64,000 nt of DNA from an uncultured Lachnospiraceae bacterium (GTDB taxonomy: Bacteria; Bacillota; Clostridia; Lachnospirales; Lachnospiraceae). The position numbers and the translations under genes were made by a program. The number at the start of each line of letters is the position of its first letter. Position 1 is the first letter of the stretch. This document shows positions 9,008-51,883 of this stretch, piece by piece. The DNA lies in NCBI GenBank assembly GCA_910578475.1, contig CAJTRK010000008.1, positions 31,082 to 95,081 of the forward strand. Direction: 5' to 3'. The notes below the pieces were generated by a model. That model ran no database searches, was not told the origin of the DNA, and was given only the letters and a program-made list of their open reading frames with translations.

Positions 9008-9018
9008 AAAGGGAAGGC

Positions 9019-9495: not shown

Positions 9496-9502
9496 CGCTT
9501 TC

Positions 9503-9546
9503 GGGAAAAAAATCAAATTTTTTTGAAAAAAATTTGATTTTTGCCC
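9503..9546. repeat. A/T-only inverted repeat closed by GGG/CCC, abutting the flagellin promoter -35
   Basis: GGGAAAAAAATCAAATTTTTTT-G-AAAAAAATTTGATTTTTGCCC. The 17-bp arms are reverse complements. It sits between the stop at 9495 and the TAAA at 9547. Confidence 0.6.
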
Positions 9547-9573
9547 TAAAGTAAATCGGAGAAACTCCGATAT
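9547..9573 (+). promoter_or_regulatory. Sigma-D (sigma-28)-type promoter of the flagellin gene
   Basis: TAAA (9547-9550), a 15-nt spacer, then TCCGATAT (9566-9573). It leaves a leader of about 180 nt before the ATG at 9760. Confidence 0.8.
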
Positions 9574-9720
9574 ATAATACAAGTAAAGCAAGCTAATTAC
9601 TTACTTGACCAATGGTTACATTACAGCAATCGTTATTTTATAATGAAAGCCTTGTAACTGAGTAATGGGGCTGATGGCAGCGTACGAGCCGGAGGAACCA
9701 TTACAAGAAAAAAAAGATTG

Positions 9721-9751
9721 CGGCAAGGATGCCGTAAAAAATTCAAGGAGG
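9721..9751 (+). promoter_or_regulatory. Two CsrA-binding-type GGA sites in the flagellin 5-prime leader
   Basis: Site 1 is CGGCA-AGGA-TGCCG (9721-9734), with GGA in a 4-nt hairpin loop and a core CAAGGATG that matches the CsrA SELEX core CARGGAUG. Site 2 is CAAGGAGG (9744-9751), overlapping the Shine-Dalgarno sequence. Confidence 0.65.
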
Positions 9752-9759
9752 AATATAAT

Positions 9760-10818
9760 ATGGTAGTACAACACAACATTACAGCGATGAACTCTAACAG
9801 AATGCTTGGTTTGACAACAAGCGCTCAGGCAAAATCAACAGAAAGACTGTCTTCCGGTTACAAGATTAACCGTGCAGCAGATGATGCAGCAGGTCTTGCT
9901 ATTTCCGAGAAGATGAGACGTCAGATTAGAGGCCTTACACAGGCATCTGCAAACGCTCAGGATGGTATTTCTACTGTACAGACAGCAGAAGGTGCATTGG
10001 CAGAAGTTCAGGATATGTTACAGAGAATGAACGAGCTGGCTGTTAAAGGTGAGAACGGTACTCTTACAACAACAGACCGTGCATCCATCCAGGCTGAAAT
10101 CGGACAGTTGATGAGTGAAATCGACCGTGTTCAGAGTACAACTACTTTCAATGAGATGAACCTGTTAGACGGTTCCTTCATTAAAGGTCTTCAGGTTGGT
10201 GCAGAAGCTGGTCAGCACATCAACATCAGCATCGCAAACATGAGTATGGCTGGTCTTGCACACAACATTGATACCAAGCTGTATACGAAAGTTACATTCA
10301 GAAATCTTGCAGCAGGCAGCGTAAGCGGTACAATGTCAACTTATACACAGCATACTCTTACACAGTCCGGTGGTAAGGTAATGATTGGTCAAATGACTTC
10401 CGCTACGGTAAATACGTTTACCACAATCGGCGCTGGAAAGTACAACAAAGCTACATTAGACAGTGAGATGGCAACCAAGATTATGAATACCTTCATGAGA
10501 CTGGATGCTGGTAATGCACAGACTGTTGCTTCGGCTAAAGACTTCAACTCCCTGAACGCATTTATCAAGGGTGCTCTGTCCTTAGTATCTCAGCAGCGTT
10601 CTGACCTGGGTGCTATCCAGAACAGACTTGAGCACACAATCAACAACCTGAACAACATCGTTGAGAATACAACATCCGCAGAATCTGCTATCCGTGATAC
10701 AGATATTGCAACTGAGATGGTTAAGTACTCCAACAATGGTATCCTGCAGCAGGCTGGTACATCCATGTTGTCACAGGCAAATCAGGGCAATCAGCTGGCA
10801 CTGTCCTTACTTGGTTAA
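9760..10818 (+). CDS. fliC: Flagellin (352 aa)
   Basis: MVVQHNITAMNSNRMLG...LSSGYKINRAADDAAGLAISEKMR...QRMNELAV at the N-terminus and TEMVKYSNNGILQQAGTSMLSQANQGNQLALSLLG at the C-terminus. AAGGAGG lies 8 nt before the ATG at 9760, so the track start at 9718 is unlikely. The central region is Ser/Thr-rich. Confidence 0.95.
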   Translation: MVVQHNITAMNSNRMLGLTTSAQAKSTERLSSGYKINRAADDAAGLAISEKMRRQIRGLTQASANAQDGISTVQTAEGALAEVQDMLQRMNELAVKGENGTLTTTDRASIQAEIGQLMSEIDRVQSTTTFNEMNLLDGSFIKGLQVGAEAGQHINISIANMSMAGLAHNIDTKLYTKVTFRNLAAGSVSGTMSTYTQHTLTQSGGKVMIGQMTSATVNTFTTIGAGKYNKATLDSEMATKIMNTFMRLDAGNAQTVASAKDFNSLNAFIKGALSLVSQQRSDLGAIQNRLEHTINNLNNIVENTTSAESAIRDTDIATEMVKYSNNGILQQAGTSMLSQANQGNQLALSLLG

Positions 10819-10857
10819 TTACCGAAGTATTAGCGAACATTGCATAGTGAACTACCA

Positions 10858-10890
10858 ATCCCCACCCTTAAATAGGGTGGGGATTTTGCT
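10858..10890 (+). terminator. Rho-independent terminator of the flagellin gene
   Basis: ATCCCCACCC-ttaaata-GGGTGGGGAT is a perfect 10-bp stem followed by TTT. Confidence 0.8.
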
Positions 10891-10958
10891 ACCATCGAAA
10901 GAGTGGCTCTTTTTCTATGGCTTATAAGATTTTGGAATAATTCTCTGACAGAAATCTG

Positions 10959-12008
10959 CTAGCCGTCCATTCGTTGTAACGCTTCCAGAGCAGGCTCAAA
11001 TTCTCCGCATTTTTGATAATGCTGTCTGGCAATGTCTTTCTGCCCGAAAACTTCGTAAATATAGCCGATATAATAGGAGATGACTCTGGATTCTACCGAA
11101 TCCCGTGATGGTGCGGACAGAGCTTTGACGAGTTCCGGCAATGCTTTTAAATGCTGATTCAAATGAAGGTACATAACGCCAATCATACACAGGTAATCGG
11201 CATTATCGTTGTAATCATCGTAGAACGATAACAGGGAACGGGCTTCTTCCGCCTTATTATTGTCCAACAGGATATTGCCATAGTTACACACAAGTATACG
11301 CGTATAGTCTTCTTCCGGCGGTGGATTCCGCTTCATAGCCATCTTGAAGTATTCAAAAGCCTGTTCCTGATTTCTCATACAGAGATAACTCTGCGCCATC
11401 TGGAAATAGTTATACGGTTCATCGGGATTTTTTTCGATTTCCGGGAGCAGAAGTTCGATATCCCGCATGGATTTTTCGTATAATTTTTCGTCAGAGCCGA
11501 CATATCCTACATGGTCGGCTACGATGGGAAGGTTATAGCTGGTGGTGGAAATATTGGTAATCGGAACCAATATTTCATGAATCGGCCGTTCATAGCGGTA
11601 GTATTTTCTGTTAAAAAGCCGGTCGATAATCGTCGTCTGGCAATGCTTTTCCCCGTCGATTTCAAAATAGTCGAGCCGTTTGATAAGACCAACGCTTTTG
11701 GGATGTTCGGCCATAAGACGCTGTACCTGGTCGAAGTCAAATTCCAGAAGAAACTCATCGGTGTCCAGAACAAGAATCATATTATGAGAGGCACGGCTGA
11801 TAGAAAAATTTCTGGCGGCGCTGAAATCTTTTACCCATTCAAAATCGAATATTTTATCGGTGTATTTGCGGGCTACTTCTTTGGAATTATCGGCGGAGCC
11901 CGTATCTACAATGACAATTTCAAAAGGGTAGGGTTTGAGCGCTTCCAGACATTTCTCCAGATGCTCGGCTTCATTTTTGGTAATGATACATACGGAAATC
12001 GGAATCAT
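10959..12008 (-). CDS. GT2 + TPR glycosyltransferase, paralogue 1 of 5 (candidate flagellin glycosyltransferase)
   Basis: MIPISVCIITKNEAEHLEKCLEALKPYPFEIVIVDTGSADNS...DFSAARNF...LDTDEF is a GT2 domain. The C-terminal half is TPR-like (YFQMAQSY, AFEYFKMAM). The ATG at 12008 has AAGGAGA upstream, so the track start at 12053 is less likely. Confidence 0.75.
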   Translation of the reverse strand: MIPISVCIITKNEAEHLEKCLEALKPYPFEIVIVDTGSADNSKEVARKYTDKIFDFEWVKDFSAARNFSISRASHNMILVLDTDEFLLEFDFDQVQRLMAEHPKSVGLIKRLDYFEIDGEKHCQTTIIDRLFNRKYYRYERPIHEILVPITNISTTSYNLPIVADHVGYVGSDEKLYEKSMRDIELLLPEIEKNPDEPYNYFQMAQSYLCMRNQEQAFEYFKMAMKRNPPPEEDYTRILVCNYGNILLDNNKAEEARSLLSFYDDYNDNADYLCMIGVMYLHLNQHLKALPELVKALSAPSRDSVESRVISYYIGYIYEVFGQKDIARQHYQKCGEFEPALEALQRMDG

Positions 12009-16555: not shown

Positions 16556-17272
16556 GTGAATATTGCAATGATTTTGGCAGGCGGTACGGATAACCGCTTT
16601 CAGATGAGCGTCCCGAAACAGTTCGTGAACGTATATAACCGTCCGGTAATTGTCTATACGCTGGAAGCGTTTCAGAAGCATGATGAAATCGACGCAATTA
16701 TGGTTTCCTGTCTGGACGGCTGGCAGGAAATGGTCAGAGCTTACGCGAAGCAGTTCAATATCAGCAAATTAAAATGGATTGTTTCCGGCGGCCGGGACGG
16801 ACAGGCTTCCGCGCGGAACGGTATTCTGGTACTGAAAGACGAATGCCGCGGGGATGATATCGTTGTCCTTCACGATTCCATAAGGCCCTTTGTTTCGGAG
16901 GAAATTATTACCGATAGTCTCAAAGTATGCAGGGTGCACGATATGGGAGTGGCGGCTGTGCGGACGATGGACACGATTATGCGGACGAACGACGGTATGG
17001 TGGGAACGGAAAGTATTTCCCGCTATTCGATTATCCGTATTCAGACGCCTCAGGCATACCGGATGGACCGGTTATGGGATATACACGAAAAAGCGATAGA
17101 AAAAGGAATCACCGGTGAAGTAGATACCAACAGTGTGATTTCGAGACTTGGAGAACCTGTTTATTTTTCAAAAGGCTCCGACCTGAATATGAAGATTAAT
17201 ACGGTAGAAGACGTGGAGATGTTCAAAGCATTATATAAGATGCGGCAGGAAGCGGAGAAGGAAAAAGCATAA
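16556..17272 (+). CDS. IspD/TarI-family cytidylyltransferase, copy 1
   Basis: IAMILAGGTDNRFQMSVPKQFVNVYNRPVIVYTLEAFQKH resembles the N-termini of TarI (ribitol-5-P cytidylyltransferase) and IspD. GTG start with GGAGG upstream. The glycine-rich loop reads GGTDNR rather than GGxGxR. Confidence 0.7.
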   Translation: MNIAMILAGGTDNRFQMSVPKQFVNVYNRPVIVYTLEAFQKHDEIDAIMVSCLDGWQEMVRAYAKQFNISKLKWIVSGGRDGQASARNGILVLKDECRGDDIVVLHDSIRPFVSEEIITDSLKVCRVHDMGVAAVRTMDTIMRTNDGMVGTESISRYSIIRIQTPQAYRMDRLWDIHEKAIEKGITGEVDTNSVISRLGEPVYFSKGSDLNMKINTVEDVEMFKALYKMRQEAEKEKA

Positions 17273-17368
17273 AGTTATATGATAAGAATATAGGTAAAAC
17301 TGACAATATCAAAAACACTGAAAGTTCTTAAATCCAAAAGAATGCAGAGGGACAAGGCTGAAAATCAC

Positions 17369-17447
17369 AGATTGTCAATCTTTGAAAGGAGCATGTTTAA
17401 GATTGAAAATTATAATTTTCAAAGATTGAAAATAAAGATTTTCAATC
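17369..17447. repeat. Nested palindromes and direct repeats built on GATTGAAAAT
   Basis: AGATTGTCAATCT (17369-17381). The palindrome TTGAAAATTATAATTTTCAA (17403-17422). GATTGAAAAT-aaag-ATTTTCAATC (17424-17447). Half-sites start at 17403, 17415, 17426 and 17438, so they are 11-12 bp apart. Confidence 0.6.
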
Positions 17448-17522
17448 GCGAGATTTGTGTCTGCGCGCTGCTTGCCACAAACTCGTTTATGCGCAAAAAG
17501 CAGCGCAGAAATGGAGTTAAAA

Positions 17523-18233
17523 ATGAATATAGCGCTTTTATTGGCCGGCGGCAGCGGAACAAGGACAGAGCAGGACGTTCCGAAACAGTTTTTTAACGTA
17601 TATGAAAAACCAATCATAATTTATACGCTGGAAGCATTTCAGAAACATCCGGACATTGACGGCATCATCGTGTCCTGCCTTGAAGGCTGGCACGAGATTT
17701 TGAGCGCTTATGCGAGGGAAGCGGGCATTACAAAACTGCGGAAAGTCGTCTGCGGCGGTGAGAACGGACAGGCTTCTGCCAGGAATGCGCTGCGGGAGTT
17801 AAAAGACATCTGCGGGGAGGACGATGTCGTTATCATACACGATGCCATACGACCGATGGTCTCTGCGGAAATCATATCCGACTGTATTGTGAAATGCAGA
17901 CAATATGGTTCCGGTCTTGCGGCAATGCGCTGCCAGGAAACGATTGTCGAGACAAACGACGGTATTAAAGGCGATACGGGCATCAGCCGGAATCATATCA
18001 TGCGGGTTCAGACGCCCCAGGCATATAAGTACGGAACTGTGATGAACGCTCATGAAAAGGCGTTGGAGCAGGGCATTACGAATGCGGTTTATACCAATAC
18101 GCTGATGCTGGATTTGGGAGAGACCCTTTATTTTGCGCAGGGCTCCGAGAAGAATCTGAAGATTACTACAATGGAAGATGTGGAGATTTTCAAGGCGCTG
18201 CTTCGGATGAAGAAGGAGGACTGGGTGAAGTGA
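17523..18233 (+). CDS. IspD/TarI-family cytidylyltransferase, copy 2
   Basis: MNIALLLAGGSGTRTEQDVPKQFFNVYEKPIIIYTLEAFQKH. It is collinear with copy 1. The ATG at 17523 follows GGAG, so the track start at 17457 is unlikely. Confidence 0.75.
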   Translation: MNIALLLAGGSGTRTEQDVPKQFFNVYEKPIIIYTLEAFQKHPDIDGIIVSCLEGWHEILSAYAREAGITKLRKVVCGGENGQASARNALRELKDICGEDDVVIIHDAIRPMVSAEIISDCIVKCRQYGSGLAAMRCQETIVETNDGIKGDTGISRNHIMRVQTPQAYKYGTVMNAHEKALEQGITNAVYTNTLMLDLGETLYFAQGSEKNLKITTMEDVEIFKALLRMKKEDWVK

Positions 18234-19266: not shown

Positions 19267-20310
19267 ATGTCTGAAAAAAGCAATTGGCAGTTATTCTGTC
19301 AAAAATTGGATGATGTATTAAAAGAAACTTTGGATAAAGATATTATTATTTTTGGAAGCAATCCAGGCGGGGAATTTGTCAGGTGGTTTTATGAAACTTT
19401 TTATCACAAACAGGTAACGGCAGTAGTAGACCGTTGGAATCTGGATACCCATTATCAGGTGCACCATTTGATGTCATTGTACTATTTATGGACGGAGAAG
19501 GCCGTTATTATAAACACATTACCTGAGGATATCGGGCCGGAGAAAGAATTTAATGCGATAGGAGAAAACTGGGAGCGGACGGCATGGAAAAAAGAACAGA
19601 TTGTACCTCTTTATAAGGAAATTTTCGAGGAGGGGGGGGCAAGTAAGGACAGATATATAACATTTTACGACTGGCTGGAAGCAGAGCTTTCCTTAGATAT
19701 TTTAACATCTGTTCGAAGAGCCGATGTAAAAGGGAAAGAAAGTCACGGATACTATCCGACAGATTTTAGAATGATTTTGGAAGCGGCCGATACCGGCATA
19801 TTCGATAAGGATGCCGGCATCATGGATTTTGGATGTGGAAAGGGCGCGGCGATGATGGCGCTCAGAAATTGCGGATTTCGAAAAATTGCGGGAATTGAAT
19901 TTACAGATAGCATTTATGATATTATGTGTGATAATTTCAAAAAATCAGGGTATTGTGTAGAAAAGTGTACGAATGAGACAGTTCATAAAGAAGGCTTGCG
20001 TGAGGATATGTTTTATTGTTATTCGGGAGACGCGTCGGCTTTAAAAGAGGAGCTGGATAATTATCAGAATTTTTATTTCTTTAATCCGTTTTCTTATGAA
20101 TTGACAAGAAGGGTTCTGGGAAATATACTGGACAGCCTGGAACGAAAGCCGAGAAAGATGGCAGTTTTTTATGCAGAACCTATGTGCCACAGCATAATCA
20201 TGCAATCCGGTAAATTTGAACTTGTAAAGAAAATAGACAGATTTTTGGGCGGGGCAACTTATAGCGCTTATCTATATGAAACTTTTTATGATAGAAACTT
20301 TTGTCAGTGA
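19267..20310 (+). CDS. Class I SAM-dependent methyltransferase with an N-terminal Rossmann-like module; contains an in-frame G8 tract
   Basis: IMDFGCGKGAAMMALRNCGFRKIAGIEF is a motif-I type SAM-binding loop. The N-terminus reads IIIFGSNPGGEFVRWF...VVDRWN. The G8 tract lies at 19632-19639. Confidence 0.6.
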   Translation: MSEKSNWQLFCQKLDDVLKETLDKDIIIFGSNPGGEFVRWFYETFYHKQVTAVVDRWNLDTHYQVHHLMSLYYLWTEKAVIINTLPEDIGPEKEFNAIGENWERTAWKKEQIVPLYKEIFEEGGASKDRYITFYDWLEAELSLDILTSVRRADVKGKESHGYYPTDFRMILEAADTGIFDKDAGIMDFGCGKGAAMMALRNCGFRKIAGIEFTDSIYDIMCDNFKKSGYCVEKCTNETVHKEGLREDMFYCYSGDASALKEELDNYQNFYFFNPFSYELTRRVLGNILDSLERKPRKMAVFYAEPMCHSIIMQSGKFELVKKIDRFLGGATYSAYLYETFYDRNFCQ

Positions 20311-20370
20311 TATCCATATTAACAGCATGGTAATGTATGATAAAGCGGATGAAAGGAAAGTGAGGATACA

Positions 20371-22602
20371 ATGGTAAGAAGAGACATAACACAATTGGCT
20401 GTATGTGAGACACAACAGGAATTGGACAGTGTTCCTTTTGAGTGTTTGAGAAAATTTTATTTAGACAAGACATCGGAAATTATTTATTTTACAAAAGAGA
20501 AAAAGCTTTATGGGATTGTATGTACGCGTGAGGCGGTTAGCGGCAAAGATATTATAACAATTAATAAGTCTTTTACGGTTTTACAGGAAGGTGATATTGT
20601 AAAAGCCTGCAGAACATTTCAGTCAAGAAAAACAAGGATACATAAAATACCCATTGTCAACGCGCAGGGGGAATTAGTCGGCGATTATTCCAGTTGGGAC
20701 GATATGCTTTATATTGAAAGAAATCGAAACAGGTTAATGCGGAAAGAATCTGTAAAAAAGGTATTGGGAATCTATCATAAAATATACATGGTGAAATCCA
20801 TTGCCGAAAAGCTTCCGGTTTATATCCAACTGACAGGTTATTTAGAGCGTTTTGGCATTGAATATTTGCCATTGGATAAAGAGCAGATTGCAGGGAAGCT
20901 GTCAGAGAAGGCCTGTTTTATCTTTGTGGATGAGGATGAGAGAAGGGGAACAGAGTGTCTGTTCCAAATTGAACCTTGTTTTTATGATATTCGGGGAAAG
21001 TACATTTACGAATATGATATGCTGGCAAGTGCATTTGATAACTTAAAGTTCGTGACGTACAAAAGCCTGATGGTGCAGATAATGTACAATAATCAGTTTG
21101 AAACATTACAGGTGAAAAAGCCTGACAGTGTATATAGTGATTTGGTAGACGATAAAGTTTCATTTTTACTATCGGCATTGAATAAACGAGGCGTGAATTG
21201 TTTTTGTATATATAATTTTGAGGATAAAGATGTAATATCTGATTATTGTAAAGAATTTCAGAATGAAGTAAAAGAAAGAATGGCTAAATTTCCCAGAAAG
21301 CTTAAAAAGCCCTGGCCGCAAAAAGATGAAAATCCGGATTTTTTTGATGATTTATATCAAAATCCGGATTATGAAAAAGAAATTGTACAGAGAGAGACTT
21401 TTTTTCAGCTGACTGCATATGAGTATAAAAATGGCATTGAAGGTAAATACTGCAATGCAAAAAATGGCAGAAGGGTAACCTGCTTTCAGCCTGAAGAATA
21501 TATTGGAACAATCTATACTTTTGGCAGATGTATGATGTTAGGAGTATATGCGGAAGACCAGAATGCAATTACAAGTATTTTGCAGAAAAAGCTGATGGAA
21601 GCCGGATACGCATATCGGGTAGAAAATTGTGCAGATATGGTGAGGGCAGACTGTTCCATCGATGAAAGATTGCGTGAAATAGGTAAATTTAACCAAAATG
21701 ATATTATTGTTTTCTTTTCATCGCCGCCACACAGGTGTGTTGGTATACAAGGGATAGCATTAGAGCAAATTTTTGAAAAACATCAGATTCCAAGTACATG
21801 GGTAGAAGATACGGAATATGGACATTGCAATCATAAGGCAAATCGGATTATAGCTGATGAAATTTTGGAAATGGTAAAGCCCTGCCTTGTAAATAAACCG
21901 GAAACAAACGACAGAGAAGTGCAGTTTTGTATTCACGAAGAAATGAAGAATTATGTGTATCATAGATATATAGAACATTATTTTTCAGATTTTGCCGGTG
22001 GGAAATATGCTTCGGTTGGCGCAATCGTTATGGATTGCGACCCTTTTAGTATTGAGCACCGTTATTGGATAGAATGGGCAAGCAGACAGGTTGAGTTTTT
22101 AATTTTATTCATATTCGAGAGAGACGTGTTAACATTTTCTTTTGAAGAACGATATAAGATGGTCATAGAAGGAACAAAGGATATCGATAATATTATGGTT
22201 GTACCGAGTGGAGCGTGTATTCTTTCCGATGTAACGTTTCTGGAGTATTTTTCTGGAGATAAAAATGCGGTGATATATAATGCCAGAAATGACCTTAATG
22301 TATTTGCGGATTATATTGCGGAACTTCTTCATATTACACATCGCTTCGTAGGGAATGAAACAGAGCGGGAGAGCGTGAAAATTTATAATGAAGAGATGAA
22401 ACGGATTTTGCCGCAAAAGGGAATCAGTTGTGTTGAAATGCCGGCAATGCCGCAGGGTCAAGCTGTCTGTGCGCCTAAAGCAATAAGGTATTTAAGAAAT
22501 AAGGAATATGATAAAGCGTTTGAACTGCTTCCGGAAACAACTCAAAAATATATTATGAATCATCTTTATTTAACGGAAGAACTGAAAAGTCAGGCAGAAT
22601 GA
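20371..22602 (+). CDS. 743-aa multidomain protein: CBS-like N-terminus, an unknown central region and a CitC-type (citrate lyase ligase-like) nucleotidyltransferase/ligase C-terminal domain
   Basis: The C-terminal GAIVMDCDPFSIEHRYWIEWASRQVEFLILFIF...SFEERYKMVIEGTKDIDNIMVVPSGACILSDVTFLEYF...THRFVGNE aligns by eye with E. coli CitC (GAIVMNANPFTLGHRYL...LHLF...THRFVG). The N-terminal GELVGDYS-type segment looks CBS-like. Confidence 0.6.
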   Translation: MVRRDITQLAVCETQQELDSVPFECLRKFYLDKTSEIIYFTKEKKLYGIVCTREAVSGKDIITINKSFTVLQEGDIVKACRTFQSRKTRIHKIPIVNAQGELVGDYSSWDDMLYIERNRNRLMRKESVKKVLGIYHKIYMVKSIAEKLPVYIQLTGYLERFGIEYLPLDKEQIAGKLSEKACFIFVDEDERRGTECLFQIEPCFYDIRGKYIYEYDMLASAFDNLKFVTYKSLMVQIMYNNQFETLQVKKPDSVYSDLVDDKVSFLLSALNKRGVNCFCIYNFEDKDVISDYCKEFQNEVKERMAKFPRKLKKPWPQKDENPDFFDDLYQNPDYEKEIVQRETFFQLTAYEYKNGIEGKYCNAKNGRRVTCFQPEEYIGTIYTFGRCMMLGVYAEDQNAITSILQKKLMEAGYAYRVENCADMVRADCSIDERLREIGKFNQNDIIVFFSSPPHRCVGIQGIALEQIFEKHQIPSTWVEDTEYGHCNHKANRIIADEILEMVKPCLVNKPETNDREVQFCIHEEMKNYVYHRYIEHYFSDFAGGKYASVGAIVMDCDPFSIEHRYWIEWASRQVEFLILFIFERDVLTFSFEERYKMVIEGTKDIDNIMVVPSGACILSDVTFLEYFSGDKNAVIYNARNDLNVFADYIAELLHITHRFVGNETERESVKIYNEEMKRILPQKGISCVEMPAMPQGQAVCAPKAIRYLRNKEYDKAFELLPETTQKYIMNHLYLTEELKSQAE

Positions 22603-22628
22603 TTTACATTATAAGGAGGATGGAAACA

Positions 22629-22862
22629 ATGGAAGAGAGAATATTAAAAATATTGGAAGAACAGTGTGAGGAAGTATTGGATTATGATGGTGATAATATG
22701 ATGGAAGACGGCGTCATAGATTCTTTTACTGTTCTGGATATAATAAATGGCTTAGAAGAAGAATTTGATATCGAAATCGATGCAGATTATGTAATAGCGG
22801 AAAACCTAAAAAATAAAGATACAATTATTGCATTGGTCAGAAAAGTGTTGGCGGAAAATTGA
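22629..22862 (+). CDS. Acyl/peptidyl carrier protein (ACP/DltC-like, 77 aa)
   Basis: GVIDSFTVLDIINGLEEEFDIEIDADYV corresponds to the ACP DSL(D)TVELV..LEEEF phosphopantetheine-attachment helix. The candidate Ser codon is at 22722-22724. AAGGAGG lies 9 nt before the ATG at 22629. Confidence 0.7.
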   Translation: MEERILKILEEQCEEVLDYDGDNMMEDGVIDSFTVLDIINGLEEEFDIEIDADYVIAENLKNKDTIIALVRKVLAEN

Positions 22863-23074
22863 CGAGTTTATACATCGGAAGAGAAAAAGAGCCCGAACGC
22901 TTAGCAGTAATTATAAATACTCTGCCCAATAATTTAGGACCTGAGAATGAATTTGGTAATATAGGAGAGGTATGGGAGCGGACAGCATGGAAAGATGAAC
23001 AGATTATATCATTGTATGAAGAAATTTTTCCAAACAGCAGATTTGGGATATGGGCAAGTTTTATATATCACTAA
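22859..23074 (+). pseudogene. Remnant of a paralogue of the 19267..20310 methyltransferase gene
   Basis: AVIINTLPNNLGPENEFGNIGEVWERTAWKDEQIISLYEEIF aligns with AVIINTLPEDIGPEKEFNAIGENWERTAWKKEQIVPLYKEIF (19489-19640). It has no plausible start or RBS and lacks both flanking domains. Confidence 0.6.
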
Positions 23075-23098
23075 TATTATTTGATATGCTGCCGATAT
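23072..23098 (+). promoter_or_regulatory. Candidate sigma-D-like promoter inside the island
   Basis: TAAT (23072-23075), a 15-nt spacer, then GCCGATAT (23091-23098). The -10 is an 8/8 match to consensus and the -35 matches 3 of 4. Confidence 0.4.
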
Positions 23099-23151
23099 AT
23101 ACTTTAGCAAGGATTGCGATAGTGTTGCACGGAGGCAGAATAGCATTGAGT

Positions 23152-23196
23152 AAAACCTGTTATGCGTGTATTAATGCAATAACAGGTTTTTGTTTA
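23152..23196 (+). terminator. Intrinsic-terminator-like hairpin in the 200-nt gap before the TagF-like gene
   Basis: AAAACCTGTTAT, a 15-nt loop, then ATAACAGGTTTT, followed by TGTTTAT. The stem is a perfect 12 bp. Confidence 0.6.
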
Positions 23197-23273
23197 TGTT
23201 AATTGAATTCACAGTCTGATATGAGCATTTCACAATCACCTGATTCAAATTTAATAAAAAGGAACGGTATTTT

Positions 23274-25844
23274 ATGCGTAAGTTTCAGAAACAGCAGTTG
23301 TTAGATATTATTACAAGCCTGCATATTCTTCATCAGGAGAGTAAGGAAAAATTTGAGGAGAAAGATTATCCGACAATCCGTACAGCGCTGGCTGACTCTC
23401 AGGAAGCGGCAATTCAACTGGGTGAGGCTATTGAGAGAATGACGGGGAACGGAACAAAGGCGGTTGAATGTCTGGAAAAATACTGCGAGAAACTGTATCA
23501 GATAAGCATACAATTGGAAGAAATCTCCGCACAGAAGTTTTATAAGTCTTTAGAAGGCATATTGATAAAGGCTGAAAATGAAATTAATCATATTCCGGTT
23601 AGAAAAGAAATCGTATTCCTGCCGTACAAGGCGAGTATGTGGGATTCCCTGGAAAGTGTTTATCTGACAGCTAGAGAAGATAATAACTGTGATGTCTATG
23701 TTGTGCCGATTCCTTATTATGACAGAAGGGCTGACGGGAGCCTGGGGGAACTGCACTATGAAGGAAGCGAATATCCGAAGGATATAGTTATTACTGATTA
23801 CAGAGCGTATAATCTTGAAGAAAGACACCCGGATGTTATTTATATACATAATCCTTATGATGGCTGGAATAACGTAACCTGTCTGCCGGAATATTATTTT
23901 TGTAAGAATTTGCGAAATTTTACCGATTGTTTAGTGTATATACCTTATTTTATATTGGATGAAATAGAACCGAATGATAAAAACGGCGTGGAGAAGATGA
24001 AGCATTTTTGTTTTCTCCCAGGGGTTATATATTCACATAAAGTTATTGTGCAGTCTGAAAAGATGCGTCAGATTTATATTAACGAGTATGCCAGACAGGC
24101 AAAGGCACTTGGTTTGCCGGTTGATATGAAAGCGCTGGAAGAAAATATTTATGGGATTGGTTCACCGAAGCTTGATAAGGTACATAGCGTAAAGAAGGAT
24201 GAGCTGGAAATCCCGGCCGAGTGGCTCGGGATGATAGAGAAGCCTGACGGTTCATGGAAAAAAATAATTTTTTATAACACGAGCATTAACGCATTATTAA
24301 AATCTGATGAGAAGATGCTGGAAAAGATGCAGTCAGTGTTTGCATATTTTAAAGAAGTGCAGGAAGATATAACTCTTTTGTGGCGGCCGCATCCTCTGAT
24401 ACCAAATACGATTAAATCTATGAGACCTGTATTATGGGACAAATATAAGAAAATCGTAGAAAGATACAGGCAGGAAAACTGGGGAATCTATGATGACAGT
24501 TCCGATATGGACAGAGCCATAGCGCTCAGCGATGGGTATTATGGGGATTACAGCAGTATTGTACATTTGTATAAGGAAACAGGAAAACCGATTCTTCTGC
24601 AGGATGTAAATGTTACTTTTGAAAATTACGCAAAGGGGAGTAACTTATTTGTATCCAGTCCTATGTGGAATATAGAGAATAATAAGGCATGGTTTGTAAG
24701 TGAAGAATACAATATGCTGTTTTATGCCGAAATGGATACTGCCCAATGTGAGTTTGAGGCTGCGATACCGTACAAAGGCAGACGAGCATACAGAATGACG
24801 CCAAGATGTATGAAATGCGGCGACTGTATTTTTTGTATGCCGGATGATGGCGAATGTATAATGGTTTATCAGTGCAGCAGTCGGGAATTTTATGAGATTG
24901 AAATCGATAATCCCGATAAAGTGCGTCTTGGCATCGCCTATTTTTGGATGTATGAAGATAAGATATTTGCATTTTCCATAGGACTTAAAAAACTGATAGA
25001 GATAGATATCAGCCGAAGGAAAATAAATCATTATTTTTCATTCGATGTAAGTATAATGCCAGCCATAGAAGTGGCGGGAACGGAAATATACAGCCTTTTG
25101 AATCAGTCGGGATGTATTATATGCTTTGATATGATGAAAAAGGAAAGCATTTCATATATGCTGCCGGACATCGGAAAAGAATTTTATACACTTAGTTTCG
25201 ATGGAGAGAAGTTTTGGATGAGCGGCGCCTGTAAAGAAGTATATATTTGGAACAGAGAGGAAAATACAATTGAAACCATTGGGGGATTTCCTCCGGACTT
25301 TGGGATTTATAAAACTGTTGATAACGGAAACGGCGAAGAAATTGTTTTGGATTGTGAGAGCGAAGAATATGATGTGTGTGCATTTGCATATTCGATTGCC
25401 GCGGAAGGATATATATGGTTAATACCCTGTTGGACGAATAAGATATTGTATGTCAATCAAAATACATATGAAGTTAAAGCTTTGGAGATAGAGCATGAGG
25501 AGGAAACGGCATTAAGCGTAAAGAGAAATAATTTTTTCAGCGGCAGGTATATCCTGGAATATGTCAGGGAAAACCGATACATAGGGCTTTATTCCTATAA
25601 AAACAGATGTGTTTTTGAAATAGATGCCAGAGAAATCAATGTAAAGGAATATAACTATTATTTTAGCGAAGCGTGTTTACGGGAAGTGAAAAGTGCTGTT
25701 GCAGAAGAAAATACAGTTTATGAAAATAATATGCTTAATCTGACGAATTATTTTAATCAGCTGTTAGAGGATGATACAGCAAATGGCGGAACAGATTATG
25801 AAAATGCCGGAATAAATATCCATAAAGAAATGATGAAATACTGA
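23274..25844 (+). CDS. TagB/TagF-family (CDP-alditol phosphotransferase-like) protein with a C-terminal extension of about 400 aa of unknown fold
   Basis: The 856-aa product has IVFLPYKASMWDSLESVY, VIYIHNPYDGWNNVT, LVYIPYF and IGSPKLDK, which resemble the TagF-family core. The C-terminal half is Cys- and aromatic-rich and repetitive (possibly a beta-propeller). Assignment is from motif memory only. Confidence 0.5.
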   Translation: MRKFQKQQLLDIITSLHILHQESKEKFEEKDYPTIRTALADSQEAAIQLGEAIERMTGNGTKAVECLEKYCEKLYQISIQLEEISAQKFYKSLEGILIKAENEINHIPVRKEIVFLPYKASMWDSLESVYLTAREDNNCDVYVVPIPYYDRRADGSLGELHYEGSEYPKDIVITDYRAYNLEERHPDVIYIHNPYDGWNNVTCLPEYYFCKNLRNFTDCLVYIPYFILDEIEPNDKNGVEKMKHFCFLPGVIYSHKVIVQSEKMRQIYINEYARQAKALGLPVDMKALEENIYGIGSPKLDKVHSVKKDELEIPAEWLGMIEKPDGSWKKIIFYNTSINALLKSDEKMLEKMQSVFAYFKEVQEDITLLWRPHPLIPNTIKSMRPVLWDKYKKIVERYRQENWGIYDDSSDMDRAIALSDGYYGDYSSIVHLYKETGKPILLQDVNVTFENYAKGSNLFVSSPMWNIENNKAWFVSEEYNMLFYAEMDTAQCEFEAAIPYKGRRAYRMTPRCMKCGDCIFCMPDDGECIMVYQCSSREFYEIEIDNPDKVRLGIAYFWMYEDKIFAFSIGLKKLIEIDISRRKINHYFSFDVSIMPAIEVAGTEIYSLLNQSGCIICFDMMKKESISYMLPDIGKEFYTLSFDGEKFWMSGACKEVYIWNREENTIETIGGFPPDFGIYKTVDNGNGEEIVLDCESEEYDVCAFAYSIAAEGYIWLIPCWTNKILYVNQNTYEVKALEIEHEEETALSVKRNNFFSGRYILEYVRENRYIGLYSYKNRCVFEIDAREINVKEYNYYFSEACLREVKSAVAEENTVYENNMLNLTNYFNQLLEDDTANGGTDYENAGINIHKEMMKY

Positions 25845-25850
25845 GAAGGT

Positions 25851-26996
25851 ATGACAATGAGAGTGGTAATTTTAGCAGATGCAGACAGTATTTATTGTAA
25901 GGAATATATAGAGTATGTTCTTCTGGAGAAATATGAAGTACTGATTATAACCGGCTGTAATAAAAGATATCGTCAGTATTACAGGGAGAACGGTGTAAAA
26001 GTGCTTATCTGGATGCCGCCGCAGACACTGGAAGAAAGACTTGCGGACAGAATTTCGGACAAAATAAGACGTGATGATATATTTCATGTGCATTATGTAG
26101 AACCGCGTATTTTGAAATATTTCTGGAAGCCCTGGATAAAGTGCAGGAAACGCATACTGACATATTGGGGGAGCGACTTGCTCAGGCTTCCGCTTAAACA
26201 GATACGTTCTATGTGGCCATTTATTTATACTGCCAATGATATTATCGTGATGGATAATCATATGCGCAGAAAAATGAAGGCAGTAGTGTCAAAGCGGAAA
26301 TGGAACAGCGTAAAAAGCATTCCGCTCGGGATTCCGATGTTTGATACAATTGATGAAGTGTCAAAACGGATGTCTGTAAATGCGTGTAAACAGCATTTTG
26401 AACTGCCTGTTGATAAAATCATTGTATCGGTCGGGTATAATGCAGCCCGTGAACAGCAGCATTTGGAAATGATGCGAGAGGTAGTGAAGCTGCCGGAAGA
26501 ACTTTTAGATAAGATGTTTTTTGTATTTCATTTTGGTTACGGCGCAAAAGATACAGCTTATTGCAGGCAGTTATATAAACTGATGGAAGAAAACAATGTA
26601 CCTTATAAAGTACTGGAACAGTTTTTGGATAAGCATGAAACATCTGTTCTGCGGTTGAGCACAGACATCTTTTTATATGGACAGACTACGGATGCGATGT
26701 CGTCGAGCGTACTTGAATGTTTATATGCAGGCGCAGTATTGATAAAGCCGCAATGGCTTGACTATTCGGAGTTAAAAGGGATTAGCTTTTATGAGTATCA
26801 GCAGTTTGGTGAAATAAACGGCATTCTTGAAAATTTAATAGAAAAGGGCATAGACAGGATGCCGCAGAACAGGAAACCACTTTGGGAACAACAGTCATGG
26901 GATGTGCTTGTGCCGAGATGGAAAGCATTGTATAAGGAGAAAGCAAATGGCAAACGAAGAGGAAAGGTACATATGGCTAAACGGAGATATCGTTAA
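25851..26996 (+). CDS. Hypothetical protein, possibly a GT-B-fold glycosyltransferase
   Basis: MRVVILADADSIY...VLIITG, ILTYWGSDLL and SSSVLECLYAGAVLIKP look weakly GT4-like. Its 3-prime end overlaps the next gene by 50 nt. Confidence 0.3.
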   Translation: MTMRVVILADADSIYCKEYIEYVLLEKYEVLIITGCNKRYRQYYRENGVKVLIWMPPQTLEERLADRISDKIRRDDIFHVHYVEPRILKYFWKPWIKCRKRILTYWGSDLLRLPLKQIRSMWPFIYTANDIIVMDNHMRRKMKAVVSKRKWNSVKSIPLGIPMFDTIDEVSKRMSVNACKQHFELPVDKIIVSVGYNAAREQQHLEMMREVVKLPEELLDKMFFVFHFGYGAKDTAYCRQLYKLMEENNVPYKVLEQFLDKHETSVLRLSTDIFLYGQTTDAMSSSVLECLYAGAVLIKPQWLDYSELKGISFYEYQQFGEINGILENLIEKGIDRMPQNRKPLWEQQSWDVLVPRWKALYKEKANGKRRGKVHMAKRRYR

Positions 26997-27882
26997 GGTT
27001 GGGGATGCGAAGATAAACGTATTGGCTCCAACGGCTCAGTTTGGCGCAAATGTTTTTGAGGGAATCCGGTGCTATTTTAGTGAAGCAGGAAATCAGCTCT
27101 ATGCGTTCAGGCTGGAGGAACATTATAAGCGCTTACAGAACTCGGCAAAACTGTTTCGAATGAAGTGCCCTTATTCAACGGAAGAGCTGAAACATTTTAT
27201 GATAGACGTCGTTAAGGCCAATGGATATCGTGAAGACATTGCGGTCAGGCAGACACTATTTGTAGACGGATATGGGAGCTGGTTTTCCAGGGAACCGGTA
27301 GGTATGTTTATTGCGCCGATAGCGAAAAAAAGAATTGCCAATCCAATTGTGAAAGGAGAAAAAACCTGTGTGAGTTCATGGGAAAGAATCAGTGACAGGG
27401 ATATGTCTCCGAGAATCAAGGTAGGTGCAAACTATATTAATAGCAGGATGGCGAAGCTGGAGGCCATGGATAATGGATATGATTCGGCGTTGTTTTTAAA
27501 CAGACAGGGATTTGTGGCAGAAGGGACCGGTTCATGTTTCTTTATTGTAAAAGGCGGTTCATTGATAACGCCGATGCTGACAGATTCTATTCTGGAGAGC
27601 ATTACAAGAGATACGATAATGAAACTGGCGCAGAATGAACTCCATATGCCGGTGGTGGAACGGCATATGGACAGAACGGAATTATATACCTGTGACGAGG
27701 CCTTTTTCTGTGGCTCCGCAGTAGAAGTAACACCGGTTGTTCAGATAGACAGTCATGTGGTCGGAACCGGGAAGCCGGGAGAATGGACACAAAGAATTCA
27801 TAAACTGTATTTGGACGTGGCGACAGGCGAATATGAGAAATATACGAACTGGCTGACTCCGATATATGATTCACGTTCATAA
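26947..27882 (+). CDS. Class IV (branched-chain / D-amino-acid) aminotransferase
   Basis: [38 protein letters not shown] aligns with E. coli IlvE [45 protein letters not shown] lies before the ATG at 26947. Confidence 0.8.
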   Translation: [311 protein letters not shown]

Positions 27883-27914
27883 ATTAATATCATCAGGTAA
27901 AAGGAGAAGAAAGT

Positions 27915-28736
27915 ATGCCGTTAAAAATGATGTATATAACAAATAAGCCTAAGGTAGCGCAAATTGTAGAAAGACACCATGTGGAACGTATATGGGTGGA
28001 TTTGGAAATAAGAGGAAAAGTCGAGCGTCAGCATGGAAGAAATTCGGTGATATCAACTCATACGATAGAAGATGTGAGCGCTATTAAGAATAGTCTTTCC
28101 GTTGCAGATTTAATGGTAAGGGTAAATCCTGTTTTTGACGGCTCGCGCAAAGAGATAGATGAGTGTGTAAGAAGAGGCGCCGACATCATTATGCTTCCAT
28201 TTTTTACAGAGGCGGAAGATGTAAAAAAATTCCTCGATTATGTGGATGGCAGGGCCAGAACGATTTTGCTCGTGGAAACAATCGGCGCGGAAAAAAATCT
28301 GGAGGAAATATTAGCTTTAAAGGGCATTGATGAGGTACATATTGGATTGAATGATTTGCATATTCAATATAAAAATAAGTTTATGTTTGAACTGCTTTCT
28401 AACGGCAAGGTAGAAGAAATAACCGATAAAATTAAAAAAATCGGCATTCCATATGGTTTTGGAGGAATTGCGCGACTGGATGACGGGCTGCTTCCGGCAA
28501 GACATATTATCGCGGAACATTACCGGTTAGGCTCTTCGATGGCAATATTATCCAGAAGTTTTTATGATACATGGATATCTGACGATTATGAAGAAATCGA
28601 GAGAGCCTTTAAGTTCGGAATGCAAGAGATAAGAGAGTATGAGGAGCGCCTGGCGCATGAAACGCCGGAGTTTTTTGAAAATAACCGTAAGACAGTGATG
28701 GAAGAGGTTCAGGCCGTTTTGGATAAAATAGGCTGA
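27915..28736 (+). CDS. HpcH/HpaI aldolase / citrate-lyase-beta (CitE) family protein
   Basis: RIWVDLE, LMVRVNP, GADIIMLPFF...ED, ILLVETIGA and GIDEVHIGLNDL follow the HpcH-family TIM-barrel pattern. Confidence 0.55.
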   Translation: MPLKMMYITNKPKVAQIVERHHVERIWVDLEIRGKVERQHGRNSVISTHTIEDVSAIKNSLSVADLMVRVNPVFDGSRKEIDECVRRGADIIMLPFFTEAEDVKKFLDYVDGRARTILLVETIGAEKNLEEILALKGIDEVHIGLNDLHIQYKNKFMFELLSNGKVEEITDKIKKIGIPYGFGGIARLDDGLLPARHIIAEHYRLGSSMAILSRSFYDTWISDDYEEIERAFKFGMQEIREYEERLAHETPEFFENNRKTVMEEVQAVLDKIG

Positions 28737-28789
28737 GAAGCCGTTCCCTGACAGAATACAGGACTGGAAAAAGAGTATGGAGGTAGGTC

Positions 28790-30007
28790 ATGTTAGATTC
28801 ATATAAACAGTTAAAGGCAGCGGCGGATGAACATGGAGATGCTTTCTATATCCTGGACAGTCGATTGTTCGAACAGAATTATGACGACATGCTGTCCGCA
28901 TTCTGTTCCTATTATCCGAATACTCATATTGCATATTCATATAAAACAAATTATATGCCGAAACTTTGCAGAATAATTCAGGAAAAGGGCGGATATGCGG
29001 AGGTAGTGTCCGAGCTGGAATGGCAGCTTGCCGTGAAAACGGGAGTAAAGCCGTCGGATATATATTATAACGGGCCGTATAAGAAAAAAGAATATATTGA
29101 AAAATGTCTTCTTTCGGGTGTCCATATCAATCTGGATTCCATGTATGAAGTTGAAATTGTTGCGGAAATTGCGAAAAGGAACAGGGACAGGAAATTGGAG
29201 GCAGGCATAAGATGTAATGTGGATATCGGCCAGGATGAACCGTCCCGCTTTGGGTTTTATACACAGTCAGGAGAACTTGTCGGAATTGTGCGGAAACTGA
29301 ACGATTTGGGAAATGTAAAAGTAACGGGCCTGCATTGTCATTTACCATTTCGTTCGTTGGACTCTTTTAAGGAACGCGTCCGCATTATGTATACAATACT
29401 GGAACAGTTTCCGGAATACGAATGGTCCTATTTGAGCTTTGGCGGCGGATATATGGGAAAGGTAGACGAAGAAATGGCCAGGACATTTGCATTTGTGCCG
29501 CCAACATACGAGGATTATGCACAGGTCGTTGCGGGTGGGATGAAAGTGTTTTTTGAAAACCGGCAGCATAAACCGAAACTCATCATAGAGCCGGGCAGCG
29601 CACTGGTCGCTGATACCATGAAATATGTAACACGGGTGGTAGATATTAAATATGTAAGGGATAAATATATCGCTACGCTTTCCGGAAGTATTTATAATAT
29701 GAATCCTTCCACAAAGGGAATTAAACGTCCCATCGCCGTATATTCGGACAAACAGCAGGAACATTTCTATGAGAACGTGGATATGGCGGGATATACATGT
29801 ATCGAGTCGGACTATTTGTATAGAGGCTATCAGGGAAATCTGTCCCGGGGGGACTTTGTTGTATTCCATAACGTCGGCTCATACAGTCTTGTTATGAAAC
29901 CCCCGTTCATTCTGCCGGATGTTCCGTGCCTGGAAGAGGATGGAGAGAAGACTGTAATTGTGAAAAAGAAACAGCGTGAAGAGAGTATTTTTGCGGATTT
30001 CATATGA
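28790..30007 (+). CDS. PLP-dependent decarboxylase, Orn/DAP/Arg decarboxylase family (fold type III)
   Basis: DAFYILDSRLFEQNY...HIAYSYKTNYMPKLCRII...GGYAEVVSELEW contains a Lys equivalent to the YAxKAN PLP lysine. FGGGY and EPGSALV are also present. Confidence 0.7.
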   Translation: MLDSYKQLKAAADEHGDAFYILDSRLFEQNYDDMLSAFCSYYPNTHIAYSYKTNYMPKLCRIIQEKGGYAEVVSELEWQLAVKTGVKPSDIYYNGPYKKKEYIEKCLLSGVHINLDSMYEVEIVAEIAKRNRDRKLEAGIRCNVDIGQDEPSRFGFYTQSGELVGIVRKLNDLGNVKVTGLHCHLPFRSLDSFKERVRIMYTILEQFPEYEWSYLSFGGGYMGKVDEEMARTFAFVPPTYEDYAQVVAGGMKVFFENRQHKPKLIIEPGSALVADTMKYVTRVVDIKYVRDKYIATLSGSIYNMNPSTKGIKRPIAVYSDKQQEHFYENVDMAGYTCIESDYLYRGYQGNLSRGDFVVFHNVGSYSLVMKPPFILPDVPCLEEDGEKTVIVKKKQREESIFADFI

Positions 30008-36808: not shown

Positions 36809-36812
36809 TAGT

Positions 36813-51837: not shown

Positions 51838-51883
51838 TTATAGAAACAGAACACTTGGAAACGATTGTTTCCATAGCTTATAA

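Follow-up and report, generated by a model that had tools for sequence, protein, structure and literature searches.

What is a ligase-type domain of the citrate lyase system doing in a flagellar glycosylation island that encodes no citrate lyase? This question is raised by a 64,000-nucleotide stretch of DNA from an uncultured Lachnospiraceae bacterium (contig CAJTRK010000008.1, positions 31,082 to 95,081 of the forward strand; hereafter the window). In it, a 743-amino-acid (aa) protein with a CitC-like C-terminal domain, here named CitCL, is encoded directly upstream of a small carrier protein. The window is a flagellar glycosylation island of the Lachnospiraceae type. It carries flagellin genes at 762-2489 and 9718-10818, genes for FliD, FliW and FlaG, many GT2/TPR and DUF3880-type glycosyltransferases, rml-type sugar-nucleotide enzymes, methyltransferases and one radical SAM enzyme. 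Pfam scans that covered essentially all open reading frames (ORFs) of at least 150 aa in the window gave no family match to CitD, CitE, CitF, CitX, CitG, DltA, DltB (MBOAT) or DltD, which bears out the preliminary description of the pair as lacking citrate lyase and Dlt partners. The answer proposed here, with moderate confidence, is that CitCL takes part in a soluble, Dlt-like (amino)acyl transfer. The transferred group would pass from the carrier to Cys387 of CitCL and from there to the flagellin glycan, and the CitC-like domain would have been repurposed for docking.

How closely does CitCL resemble CitC? CitC forms an acyl-AMP from a carboxylate and then acetylates a phosphopantetheine-type thiol. 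An AlphaFold2 model of the 743-aa protein, built on 57 homologs (pLDDT 91.1, pTM 0.90), was used to delimit four domains, D1 to D4 (Table 1). Within D4, residues 549-728 match PF08218 (Citrate_ly_lig) end to end (profile positions 1-182 of 182, E 9.5e-43, 146 bits), so the earlier assignment of the C-terminal 200 residues or so to a CitC-like domain stands. The resemblance does not extend to CitC as a whole. TIGR00124 (CitC) is matched at positions 139-330 only, by residues 547-732, with 134.8 bits against an equivalog cut-off of 262.1. The best structural matches of D4 in Foldseek are phosphopantetheine adenylyltransferases (PPAT/CoaD; E 1.6e-6).

D4 of the window copy is degenerate. The preliminary description had pointed to a Glu in place of the family Gly in the first nucleotide-binding motif, PFSIEH, and this reading is correct. 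The second motif, VCAPKAIR, which had been missed, is degenerate as well. Across the superfamily, Gly562 is kept in 108 of 116 sequences, His563 in 109 of 116 and Arg705 in 104 of 107. Conservation amounts to 93-97% for Gly562 and Arg705 and to 89-95% for Asn555/557 and Ser700/702. The window copy is altered at 16 of 53 superfamily-conserved positions, whereas canonical paralogs differ at a single one. The changes include seven of the best conserved positions (N555D, N557D, G562E, S700C, S702P, V704A and R705I), so that both nucleotide-binding signatures are affected.

The most conserved domain of CitCL is not D4 but D3, which lies in the middle region that had been called unknown. A D3 profile built from distant superfamily members and searched against the PDB gave as its best match 9otv, a lysophospholipase L1-like esterase (E 7.1e-5), and 12 of the 13 listed matches were SGNH enzymes (TesA, thioesterase I, CrmE10 and GDSL esterases). 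A narrower profile reached E 0.0035. In the alignments, the FGpC segment that ends in Cys387 lies opposite LGDS or FGDS, and RVvNxG lies opposite the block II sequence VvNaG. The nucleophilic serine of block I (GDS) is absent from D3. Among 129 representatives no more than 50% identical to each other, this position is Cys in 128 and Ser in one. Arg368 and Gly385 are present in all 129, Asp396, Asn419 and Asp444 in 127 of 129 each, and His485 in 126 of 126. The window copy retains all of these near-invariant residues, and of 18 superfamily-conserved positions in D3 only T399 and G421 differ. Our call is that D3 is a divergent SGNH-like domain in which a cysteine replaces the nucleophilic serine. 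The sequence evidence for this is significant, and it comes from profiles and not from the fold. CitCL would thus work partly like CitC and partly like the SGNH enzyme DltD. By sequence it appears to be a member of neither, since it fails the CitC equivalog and lacks the defining SGNH serine.

How widespread is this combination of domains? A hidden Markov model (HMM) of D2 and D3 was searched against 1.84 billion representative proteins and found 1,529 at E <=1e-3, of which 607 at E <=1e-10. In nine of ten scanned matches that were remote or of different size, PF08218 follows directly after the D3-like region; the tenth (P0150) has a weak CBS match only. The minimal form consists of D3 and D4 alone (410-454 aa). 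In other forms the module is fused to GT2 glycosyltransferases, RgpF, ricin-type lectin domains or CBS domains, and this fusion pattern indicates a role in glycan modification. The D3-D4 module thus defines a large superfamily whose function is uncharacterised to date. Its members are publicly annotated as "citrate lyase ligase C-terminal domain-containing", "cytidyltransferase-like" or "hypothetical". A literature search for CitC-like domains in flagellin or polysaccharide loci, or for CitC together with TmcAL, returned nothing relevant, and no paper describing D3-D4 proteins was found.

The second member of the pair is a carrier with a candidate phosphopantetheine site. The listed ORF (22599-22862) would encode 87 aa. 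The start at 22629, which gives 77 aa, is the most likely true one, given the AAGGAGG sequence and its spacing. Compared by phmmer with E. coli acyl carrier protein (ACP) from the PDB (E 1.7e-4), the serine of the IDSF motif falls on Ser36 of ADSL, so the modifiable serine that the preliminary description had read in this gene is in place. The best NCBIfam match is DltC (E 7e-7), at 29.1 bits against the NF003464 cut-off of 68, and the score for Pfam PP-binding (PF00550) is 18.7 bits, slightly below the cut-off of 20.8. As had been stated earlier, this is not a CitD-type carrier. Orthologs are found in 11 locus types including the window, with IDSF kept throughout except for DSY in L007, and the exact sequence occurs on 399 contigs. 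The carrier is under purifying selection: the ratio of nonsynonymous to synonymous substitution rates (omega) is 0.03-0.21 overall and 0.12-0.21 among ligase-less lineages, at a synonymous divergence (dS) of 0.3-0.66.

What loads this carrier? A comparison of 30 related loci (L001 to L030; nearly all from Lachnospiraceae metagenome-assembled genomes, plus Eubacterium plexicaudatum ASF492) points, for the relatives, to a separate enzyme. In several of them the gene after the carrier gene encodes an ANL ligase; 7 nt separate the two genes in L018 and L019, and in L005 and L027 they overlap. The ligases of L018 and L005 were scanned; they pass the amino-acid-adenylation model TIGR01733 (349.5 and 335.3 bits; cut-off 317.4) and are DltA-like at 340 and 306 bits, below the equivalog cut-offs of 476/560. 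Because a DltA-like ligase follows the carrier in these relatives, the ancestral module appears to be a DltA/DltC-like aminoacyl-carrier pair. In L024, whose large protein is 81% identical to CitCL, a gutted ANL pseudogene stands right after the carrier gene, with residues 1-131 and 446-507 remaining. After the window carrier no ANL/DltA ligase or remnant of one was found, nor was one found anywhere in the 64 kb. The position where relatives carry the DltA-like ligase is occupied in the window by a 71-aa methyltransferase-like fragment, which suggests that the ligase was removed by recombination. In L023 (large protein 83% identical) the ligase position directly after the carrier is taken by an 806-aa D3-D4 protein (8764-11184). 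This protein has a different N-terminus of about 420 aa, an SGNH-like domain with the cysteine, and a canonical CitC-like domain (PFTLGH, ISASRVR; TIGR00124 189.8 bits). No citrate lyase subunits (citDEF) and no citX or citG were found in any of the 30 loci. A further variant is seen in L030 (8001-12271), where the genes after a Gly-retaining copy (P0052) encode the C-half of a transketolase, a GNAT acetyltransferase and a carrier homolog that is more distant (45% identity); no ANL ligase was found in that segment.

Across the related Lachnospiraceae loci the CitC-like gene occurs in tandem arrays of one to four paralogs. Within these arrays D3 is constant (0-2 of 18 positions changed) and D4 is variable (1-19 of 53). 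Carrier orthologs were sought with a dedicated HMM and were found in only some loci, and most members of the CitC-like family have no carrier within 10 kb. In the survey of neighbourhoods that the preliminary description had suggested, the CitC-like gene and the carrier gene do recur as a pair, and the carrier is specifically associated with one sub-clade of the large protein. In that sub-clade, to which the window copy belongs, a dedicated DltC-like carrier always adjoins the large protein.

The loss of the motif Gly follows the same line. All eight copies that have lost it are the copies nearest to a carrier gene, compared with 3 of the 25 that keep it (Fisher p about 1.2e-5, uncorrected for phylogeny). 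A Gly-to-Glu change is shared by a clade made up of the window copy, L023e, L024e, L018e, L019e and L021e, to which L007/P0026 is added with a Gly-to-Arg change. In L018e (Gln) and L021e (Ser) the motif His is gone as well. The Gly was lost at least twice, in the window clade and, as Gly-to-Ala, in L027e of another clade. The adjacency of a carrier at L027 was predicted before that locus was examined, and the prediction was borne out. Confinement of the loss to carrier-adjacent copies is expected if those copies no longer need to adenylate; read most simply, copies supplied by a ligase-carrier pair can do without ATP chemistry of their own. Within the window clade, omega for D4 is about 0.10-0.12, equal to that of the other domains, with dS near saturation in several of these comparisons. 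Since the ATP-binding signature has been lost while purifying selection persists, D4 most likely no longer adenylates. Loss of Arg705 alone was also considered as a mark of carrier dependence and was rejected, for R705Q copies with an intact GH stand last in their arrays without carrier or ligase (L028, L029).

How might such a protein work? In canonical members of the superfamily, D4 would use ATP to convert a free acid to its acyl-adenylate, in the manner of CitC and TmcAL. The thiol of the D3 cysteine would then take over the acyl group, and D3 would place it on a glycan, at a hydroxyl or an amine, in a CoA-independent sequence of activation and transfer. In the clade of the window copy, the cargo would arrive as a thioester on the DltC-like carrier, ancestrally loaded by the DltA-like amino-acid-adenylating ligase. 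D4 may have been kept to dock the (amino)acyl-phosphopantetheine arm, which would be consistent with its PPAT-like fold. Cys387 would accept the cargo and hand it to the flagellin glycan, in what would be a cytoplasmic analogue of the DltC-to-DltD transfer with DltB and DltX dispensable. Flagellin glycosylation is cytoplasmic, and no relay of the DltB/DltX type would therefore be needed. All of the chemistry proposed here is inferred, and so are the acceptor and the nature of the acyl group, which is probably an amino acid. Carrier-dependent acylation of the flagellar glycan, as envisaged in the preliminary description, is nonetheless likely on the strength of the island context, the ACP/DltC-type carrier, the conservation of both proteins and their association in the sub-clade. 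The further claim that the CitC-like domain itself loads the carrier is unlikely: its motifs are degenerate, relatives have DltA-like ligases, the Gly is lost only beside a carrier, and most members of the family have no carrier. More tentatively, the SGNH-like (Cys) and CitC-like module may represent a widespread class of soluble, CoA-independent "adenylate-and-transfer" glycan acyltransferases that use a thioester acyl-enzyme. The Lachnospiraceae clade, with a pseudo-enzyme ligase domain that docks an aminoacyl carrier, would then constitute a cytoplasmic Dlt-like pathway for flagellin glycans.

Several observations weigh against the proposed transfer through Cys387. The fold of D3 agrees only weakly with its assignment. 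With the full-length model as query, Foldseek picked up nothing but the C-terminal PPAT-like domain, so a separate model of D2 and D3 was built from trimmed database homologs (pLDDT 85.7). It gave no Foldseek match at E <=1e-3; the best had E 0.07, with probabilities of 0.5-0.75 and TMt no higher than 0.47, and the top of the list was enriched in SGNH esterases. Pfam returned nothing for D2 and D3 searched in isolation, including no GDSL match. Searching the parts of the protein separately, as had been recommended earlier, thus gave a PF08218/PPAT-like C-terminal part, an SGNH-like D3 by sequence profile, and no significant fold match for D2 and D3. We know of no SGNH enzyme reported to use a Cys nucleophile, so D3 would be without precedent. 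The association between Gly loss and the carrier reflects only two or so independent evolutionary events, and dS is close to saturation in several of the within-clade comparisons. His563 is retained in the window copy, and residual adenylation by D4, which this would permit, is doubtful in our view. Finally, no ANL ligase accompanies the carrier in the available sequence of the window, L023, L021, L007 and L001. The proposed model is therefore missing its loader in half of the carrier-containing loci, and the window and L007 also have no canonical paralog nearby.

Could D4 still adenylate, with an altered specificity, and load the neighbouring carrier, making the pair self-sufficient? This alternative draws on the same missing ligase. 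The window, L024 and L007 all have a degenerate copy with a carrier but lack an intact ANL ligase. L023 and L021 are also without an ANL ligase, but a canonical D3-D4 protein or paralog lies nearby. Both genes have stayed under purifying selection after loss of the ANL gene, CitC itself is established to load a phosphopantetheine-type thiol, and the canonical CitC-like protein in the ANL position of L023 hints that such domains can serve a carrier. Against self-loading stand the changes at highly conserved positions (Gly562 to Glu, Arg705 to Ile, Asn555/557 to Asp, and altered Ser700/702), the additional loss of the motif His in L018e and L021e, and the DltA-like ligase as the ancestral neighbour of the carrier. 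The confinement of Gly loss to carrier-linked copies likewise suggests a relaxed need for ATP chemistry. Because the window copy still has His563, self-loading keeps some weight, and we consider it unlikely.

A second alternative concerns D3. The Cys-His domain may not be an acyltransferase but a hydrolase, thioesterase or editing domain, or it may generate ammonia as a glutaminase-type domain, with the CitC-like domain adenylating a sugar carboxylate that is converted to an amide; the role of the carrier would then be unrelated. Amidotransferase-type chemistry would also be compatible with a Cys-His pair placed in a flavodoxin-like alpha/beta fold, and most characterised SGNH enzymes are hydrolases. 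Carboxylate and amide chemistry is present in islands of this kind, as seen from the UDP-glucose dehydrogenase just upstream in L023 and the asparagine-synthase-type genes in L027 and L029. The profile and fold matches of D3, however, are to SGNH esterases and acyltransferases and never to glutamine amidotransferases, and the tight association of one clade with an ACP is left unexplained. We regard this alternative as improbable.

Has the pair perhaps lost its function, as the remains of a rearrangement in which the DltA-like ligase and the transketolase half disappeared? ANL and TKc are indeed absent from the window, a gene fragment (22859-23074) lies at the junction, and the flanking genes are contiguous without the cassette in L014. 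Decay is nevertheless very improbable, since both ORFs are intact, the exact proteins occur on hundreds of contigs, omega is 0.10-0.21 with the carrier dS unsaturated among ANL-less lineages, and all catalytic-candidate residues of D3 are kept. Last, that the CitC-like family consists of true nucleotidyltransferases (moving, for example, a cytidylyl or adenylyl group onto a sugar or polyol-phosphate) with no carboxylate activation is scarcely credible, even with a fold shared by PPAT, TagD and NMNAT, faint PF01467 and PF05636 matches in the superfamily and IspD-like and TagF-like genes on either side of the pair, for PF08218 scores 146-222 bits against about 18-31 bits for PF01467, the domain is obligately fused to a Cys/His domain of the acyl-enzyme type, and the window already has dedicated cytidylyltransferases.

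How does the proposed transfer through Cys387 compare with known systems? CitCL shares with CitC a full-length PF08218 domain in its C-terminal 180 residues, and canonical paralogs keep the CitC motifs PFT(L/K)GH and ISASxVR. Unlike CitC, CitCL has no GNAT-like N-terminal half and carries 545 unrelated N-terminal residues in its place. It also differs in having no citDEFXG genes nearby, in its degenerate motifs and in its carrier, which is of the 4'-phosphopantetheine ACP type and not CitD. Enzymes that join a nucleotidyltransferase to an SGNH domain are known, as in NeuA. The SGNH O-acyltransferases and esterases of glycans (PatB, OatA, the C-terminal esterase of NeuA) share with D3 the layout of blocks I, II and V and a glycan-modifying context. 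They differ in that D3 has a Cys nucleophile and no membrane partner, the proposed donor is an adenylate or carrier thioester and not derived from acetyl-CoA, and the structural similarity is weak. SGNH acyltransferases such as PatB and DltD form a covalent acyl-serine, in DltD a D-Ala-Ser intermediate from DltC-borne D-Ala (PMC12148441).

The Dlt system (DltA, DltC, the MBOAT protein DltB, DltX and DltD; PMC12148441) resembles the proposed one in its DltC-like carrier, in the DltA-like ligase that follows the carrier in relatives and in an SGNH-type candidate for the final transferase. In contrast to Dlt, the proposed system would be soluble and cytoplasmic, with no DltB or DltX, and its target would be a flagellin glycan and not teichoic acid. 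The SGNH-like domain has a Cys and is fused to CBS-like, D2 and CitC-like domains, neither the carrier nor the ligase reaches its equivalog cut-off (DltC and DltA, respectively), and the ligase is absent from the window. TmcAL, a HIGH-nucleotidyltransferase acetate ligase that uses acetate and ATP (PMC13602947), belongs to the same superfamily as D4 (faint PF05636). As proposed here for the canonical paralogs, it uses a free acid and ATP and passes the acyl group directly to its acceptor with no CoA or carrier. Its acceptor is a tRNA cytidine, it has no SGNH-like domain, and the sequence relation is only remote. Enterobacteriaceae and Aeromonas are known to have pairs of an ACP and an AMP-dependent synthetase in their flagellin glycosylation islands (PMC4875605; PMC7874193), so the carrier itself is not novel. 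These islands likewise combine a dedicated carrier and an adenylating ligase (PMC4875605; PMC7874193). They differ in their fatty-acid-type partners (FabG, LuxC/E), none has been reported with a CitC-like or Cys-SGNH-like protein, and the chemistry there is also unproven. What is apparently new is the Cys-SGNH-like/CitC-like module, its breadth, the paralog arrays, and a ligase domain turned into a non-catalytic partner of a carrier.

The two N-terminal domains are less informative. The preliminary description of the N-terminus as CBS-like is weakly supported. Pfam CBS (PF00571) is matched at E 6e-4 with 20.5 bits, below the 24-bit cut-off, and a single motif was detected. In the AlphaFold2 model, D1 has the order beta-alpha-beta-beta-alpha twice, which fits a CBS pair, its weak PDB match is the CBS protein MJ0100, and precomputed PF00571 matches exist for several homologs (P0223 and P0199 among them). 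For D2, no relatives were found by Pfam, by a PDB profile search (a designed protein and noise only) or by Foldseek.

Table 1. Coordinates of CitCL, its domains and candidate catalytic residues, the carrier gene and adjacent elements in the window.
Feature	Position	Strand	Basis
CitCL, 743-aa four-domain protein	20371..22602	+	ORF; AlphaFold2 model; 74 full-length homolog clusters
D1, residues 1-133, CBS-pair-like	20371..20769	+	Pfam CBS below cut-off; secondary structure of model
D2, residues 134-356, alpha/beta domain with DEDERRG motif	20770..21438	+	Confidently modelled; conserved in the family of ~700-750 aa
D3, residues 357-545, divergent SGNH/GDSL-like domain, Cys for nucleophilic Ser	21439..22005	+	Profile against PDB
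Cys387 codon, candidate acyl-accepting nucleophile	21529..21531	+	Aligned on GDS serine; 128/129 Cys, 1 Ser
His485 codon, candidate general base	21823..21825	+	Aligned on His of block V IHPN; 126/126
D4, residues 546-735, CitC-like nucleotidyltransferase domain, degenerate here	22006..22575	+	PF08218; Foldseek
Degenerate HxGH-type motif PFSIEH, residues 558-563 (family PFxKGH; Gly562 to Glu)	22042..22059	+	Motif comparison
Degenerate SxSxxR-type motif VCAPKAIR (family (I/V)SASxVRK; Ser to Cys, Ser to Pro, Arg705 to Ile)	22465..22488	+	Motif comparison
Shine-Dalgarno sequence AAGGAGG of carrier gene	22613..22619	+	Direct reading; 9-nt spacer to ATG at 22629
77-aa ACP/DltC-type carrier; candidate phosphopantetheine-site Ser32 (codon 22722-22724)	22629..22862	+	Profile and alignment
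71-aa ORF, remnant of methyltransferase-like paralog	22859..23074	+	61% identity to residues 69-120 of the 19267-20310 product
Intrinsic-terminator-like hairpin with U-rich tail, end of transcription unit	23152..23197	+	Direct folding: -24.3 kcal/mol, z -5.1

The hairpin that ends the transcription unit was missed by a consensus terminator scan because of its loop length. In L014 (605-3807), genes for an IspD-like protein (93% identical), DUF1796 (82%) and a TagF-like protein (71%) are contiguous, without the CitC-like cassette. For this reason the methyltransferase-like/CitC-like/carrier/fragment segment of the window (19267-23200) looks like an inserted or rearranged cassette between the DUF1796 gene and the TagF-like gene. 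Around the arrays of L001, L002, L003, L018, L019, L021 and L027-L030, a set of companion genes is conserved: two radical SAM/SPASM enzymes, a NodU-like carbamoyltransferase, a protein of about 575 aa without assigned function, and a transketolase whose N and C halves are encoded separately on the two sides of the array. The window is without this set and has only an unrelated radical SAM/SPASM gene (36798-37793). Methyltransferase genes also belong to the conserved surroundings of the arrays.

Other parts of the island may supply substituents of their own. Two tandem IspD/TarI-like cytidylyltransferases (16556-18233) lie upstream of the cassette. Downstream of it is an 856-aa protein (23274-25844) with a weakly TagF-like (CDP-glycerol glycerophosphotransferase) N-terminal half and about 400 C-terminal residues without a family match. 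Together these genes suggest a phospho-linked polyol or amino-alcohol substituent. Three genes in a row at 26902-30007 encode an ilvE-like class IV aminotransferase (which passes NF005146), an HpcH/HpaI-family aldolase-like protein and a lysA-like pyridoxal-phosphate decarboxylase. The glycan could owe an uncommon amino acid or amine to this trio, for which no link to the CitC-like gene was found. The middle gene of the three (27915-28736) is the HpcH/CitE-family gene of the preliminary description, and its match to PF03328 (E 3.3e-10) is real. To speak of three recurring citrate-lyase-related folds is not meaningful, since the carrier is not CitD-like and the HpcH match is to a generic aldolase family, 5 kb away and in another transcription unit. 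A citrate-lyase-like system formed by this gene and the pair was rejected in view of the generic match and the separate transcription unit, and the gene is not conserved beside the pair in relatives. Further downstream, a phosphocholine-type module (50650-55760) comprises LicD (50650-51837), a fusion of an NTP-transferase with a choline kinase (51884-53518), a second NTP_transf_3 protein (53506-54213) and a BCCT choline/betaine transporter (54210-55760). It hints that the flagellin glycan may carry phosphocholine.

Why would a carrier-fed acyl transfer in the cytoplasm matter? Immune recognition, including the sensing of flagellin in the gut, is shaped by the acyl and aminoacyl groups that bacterial surface glycans carry in ester or amide linkage, and for many of these groups the installing enzymes are not known. 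The known routes of glycan acylation are acetyl-CoA-dependent acyltransferases and MBOAT/SGNH pairs. If the proposed reading is true, a third route would be added that draws on a free acid and ATP or on a carrier thioester, and more than 1,500 representative proteins would gain a function. CitCL would then be a clear case of a ligase domain that became a docking pseudo-enzyme once a separate ligase-carrier pair supplied the activated group. The arrays of one to four paralogs, with their constant transfer domain and variable ligase domain, suggest a combinatorial diversification of flagellar glycans in abundant gut commensals.

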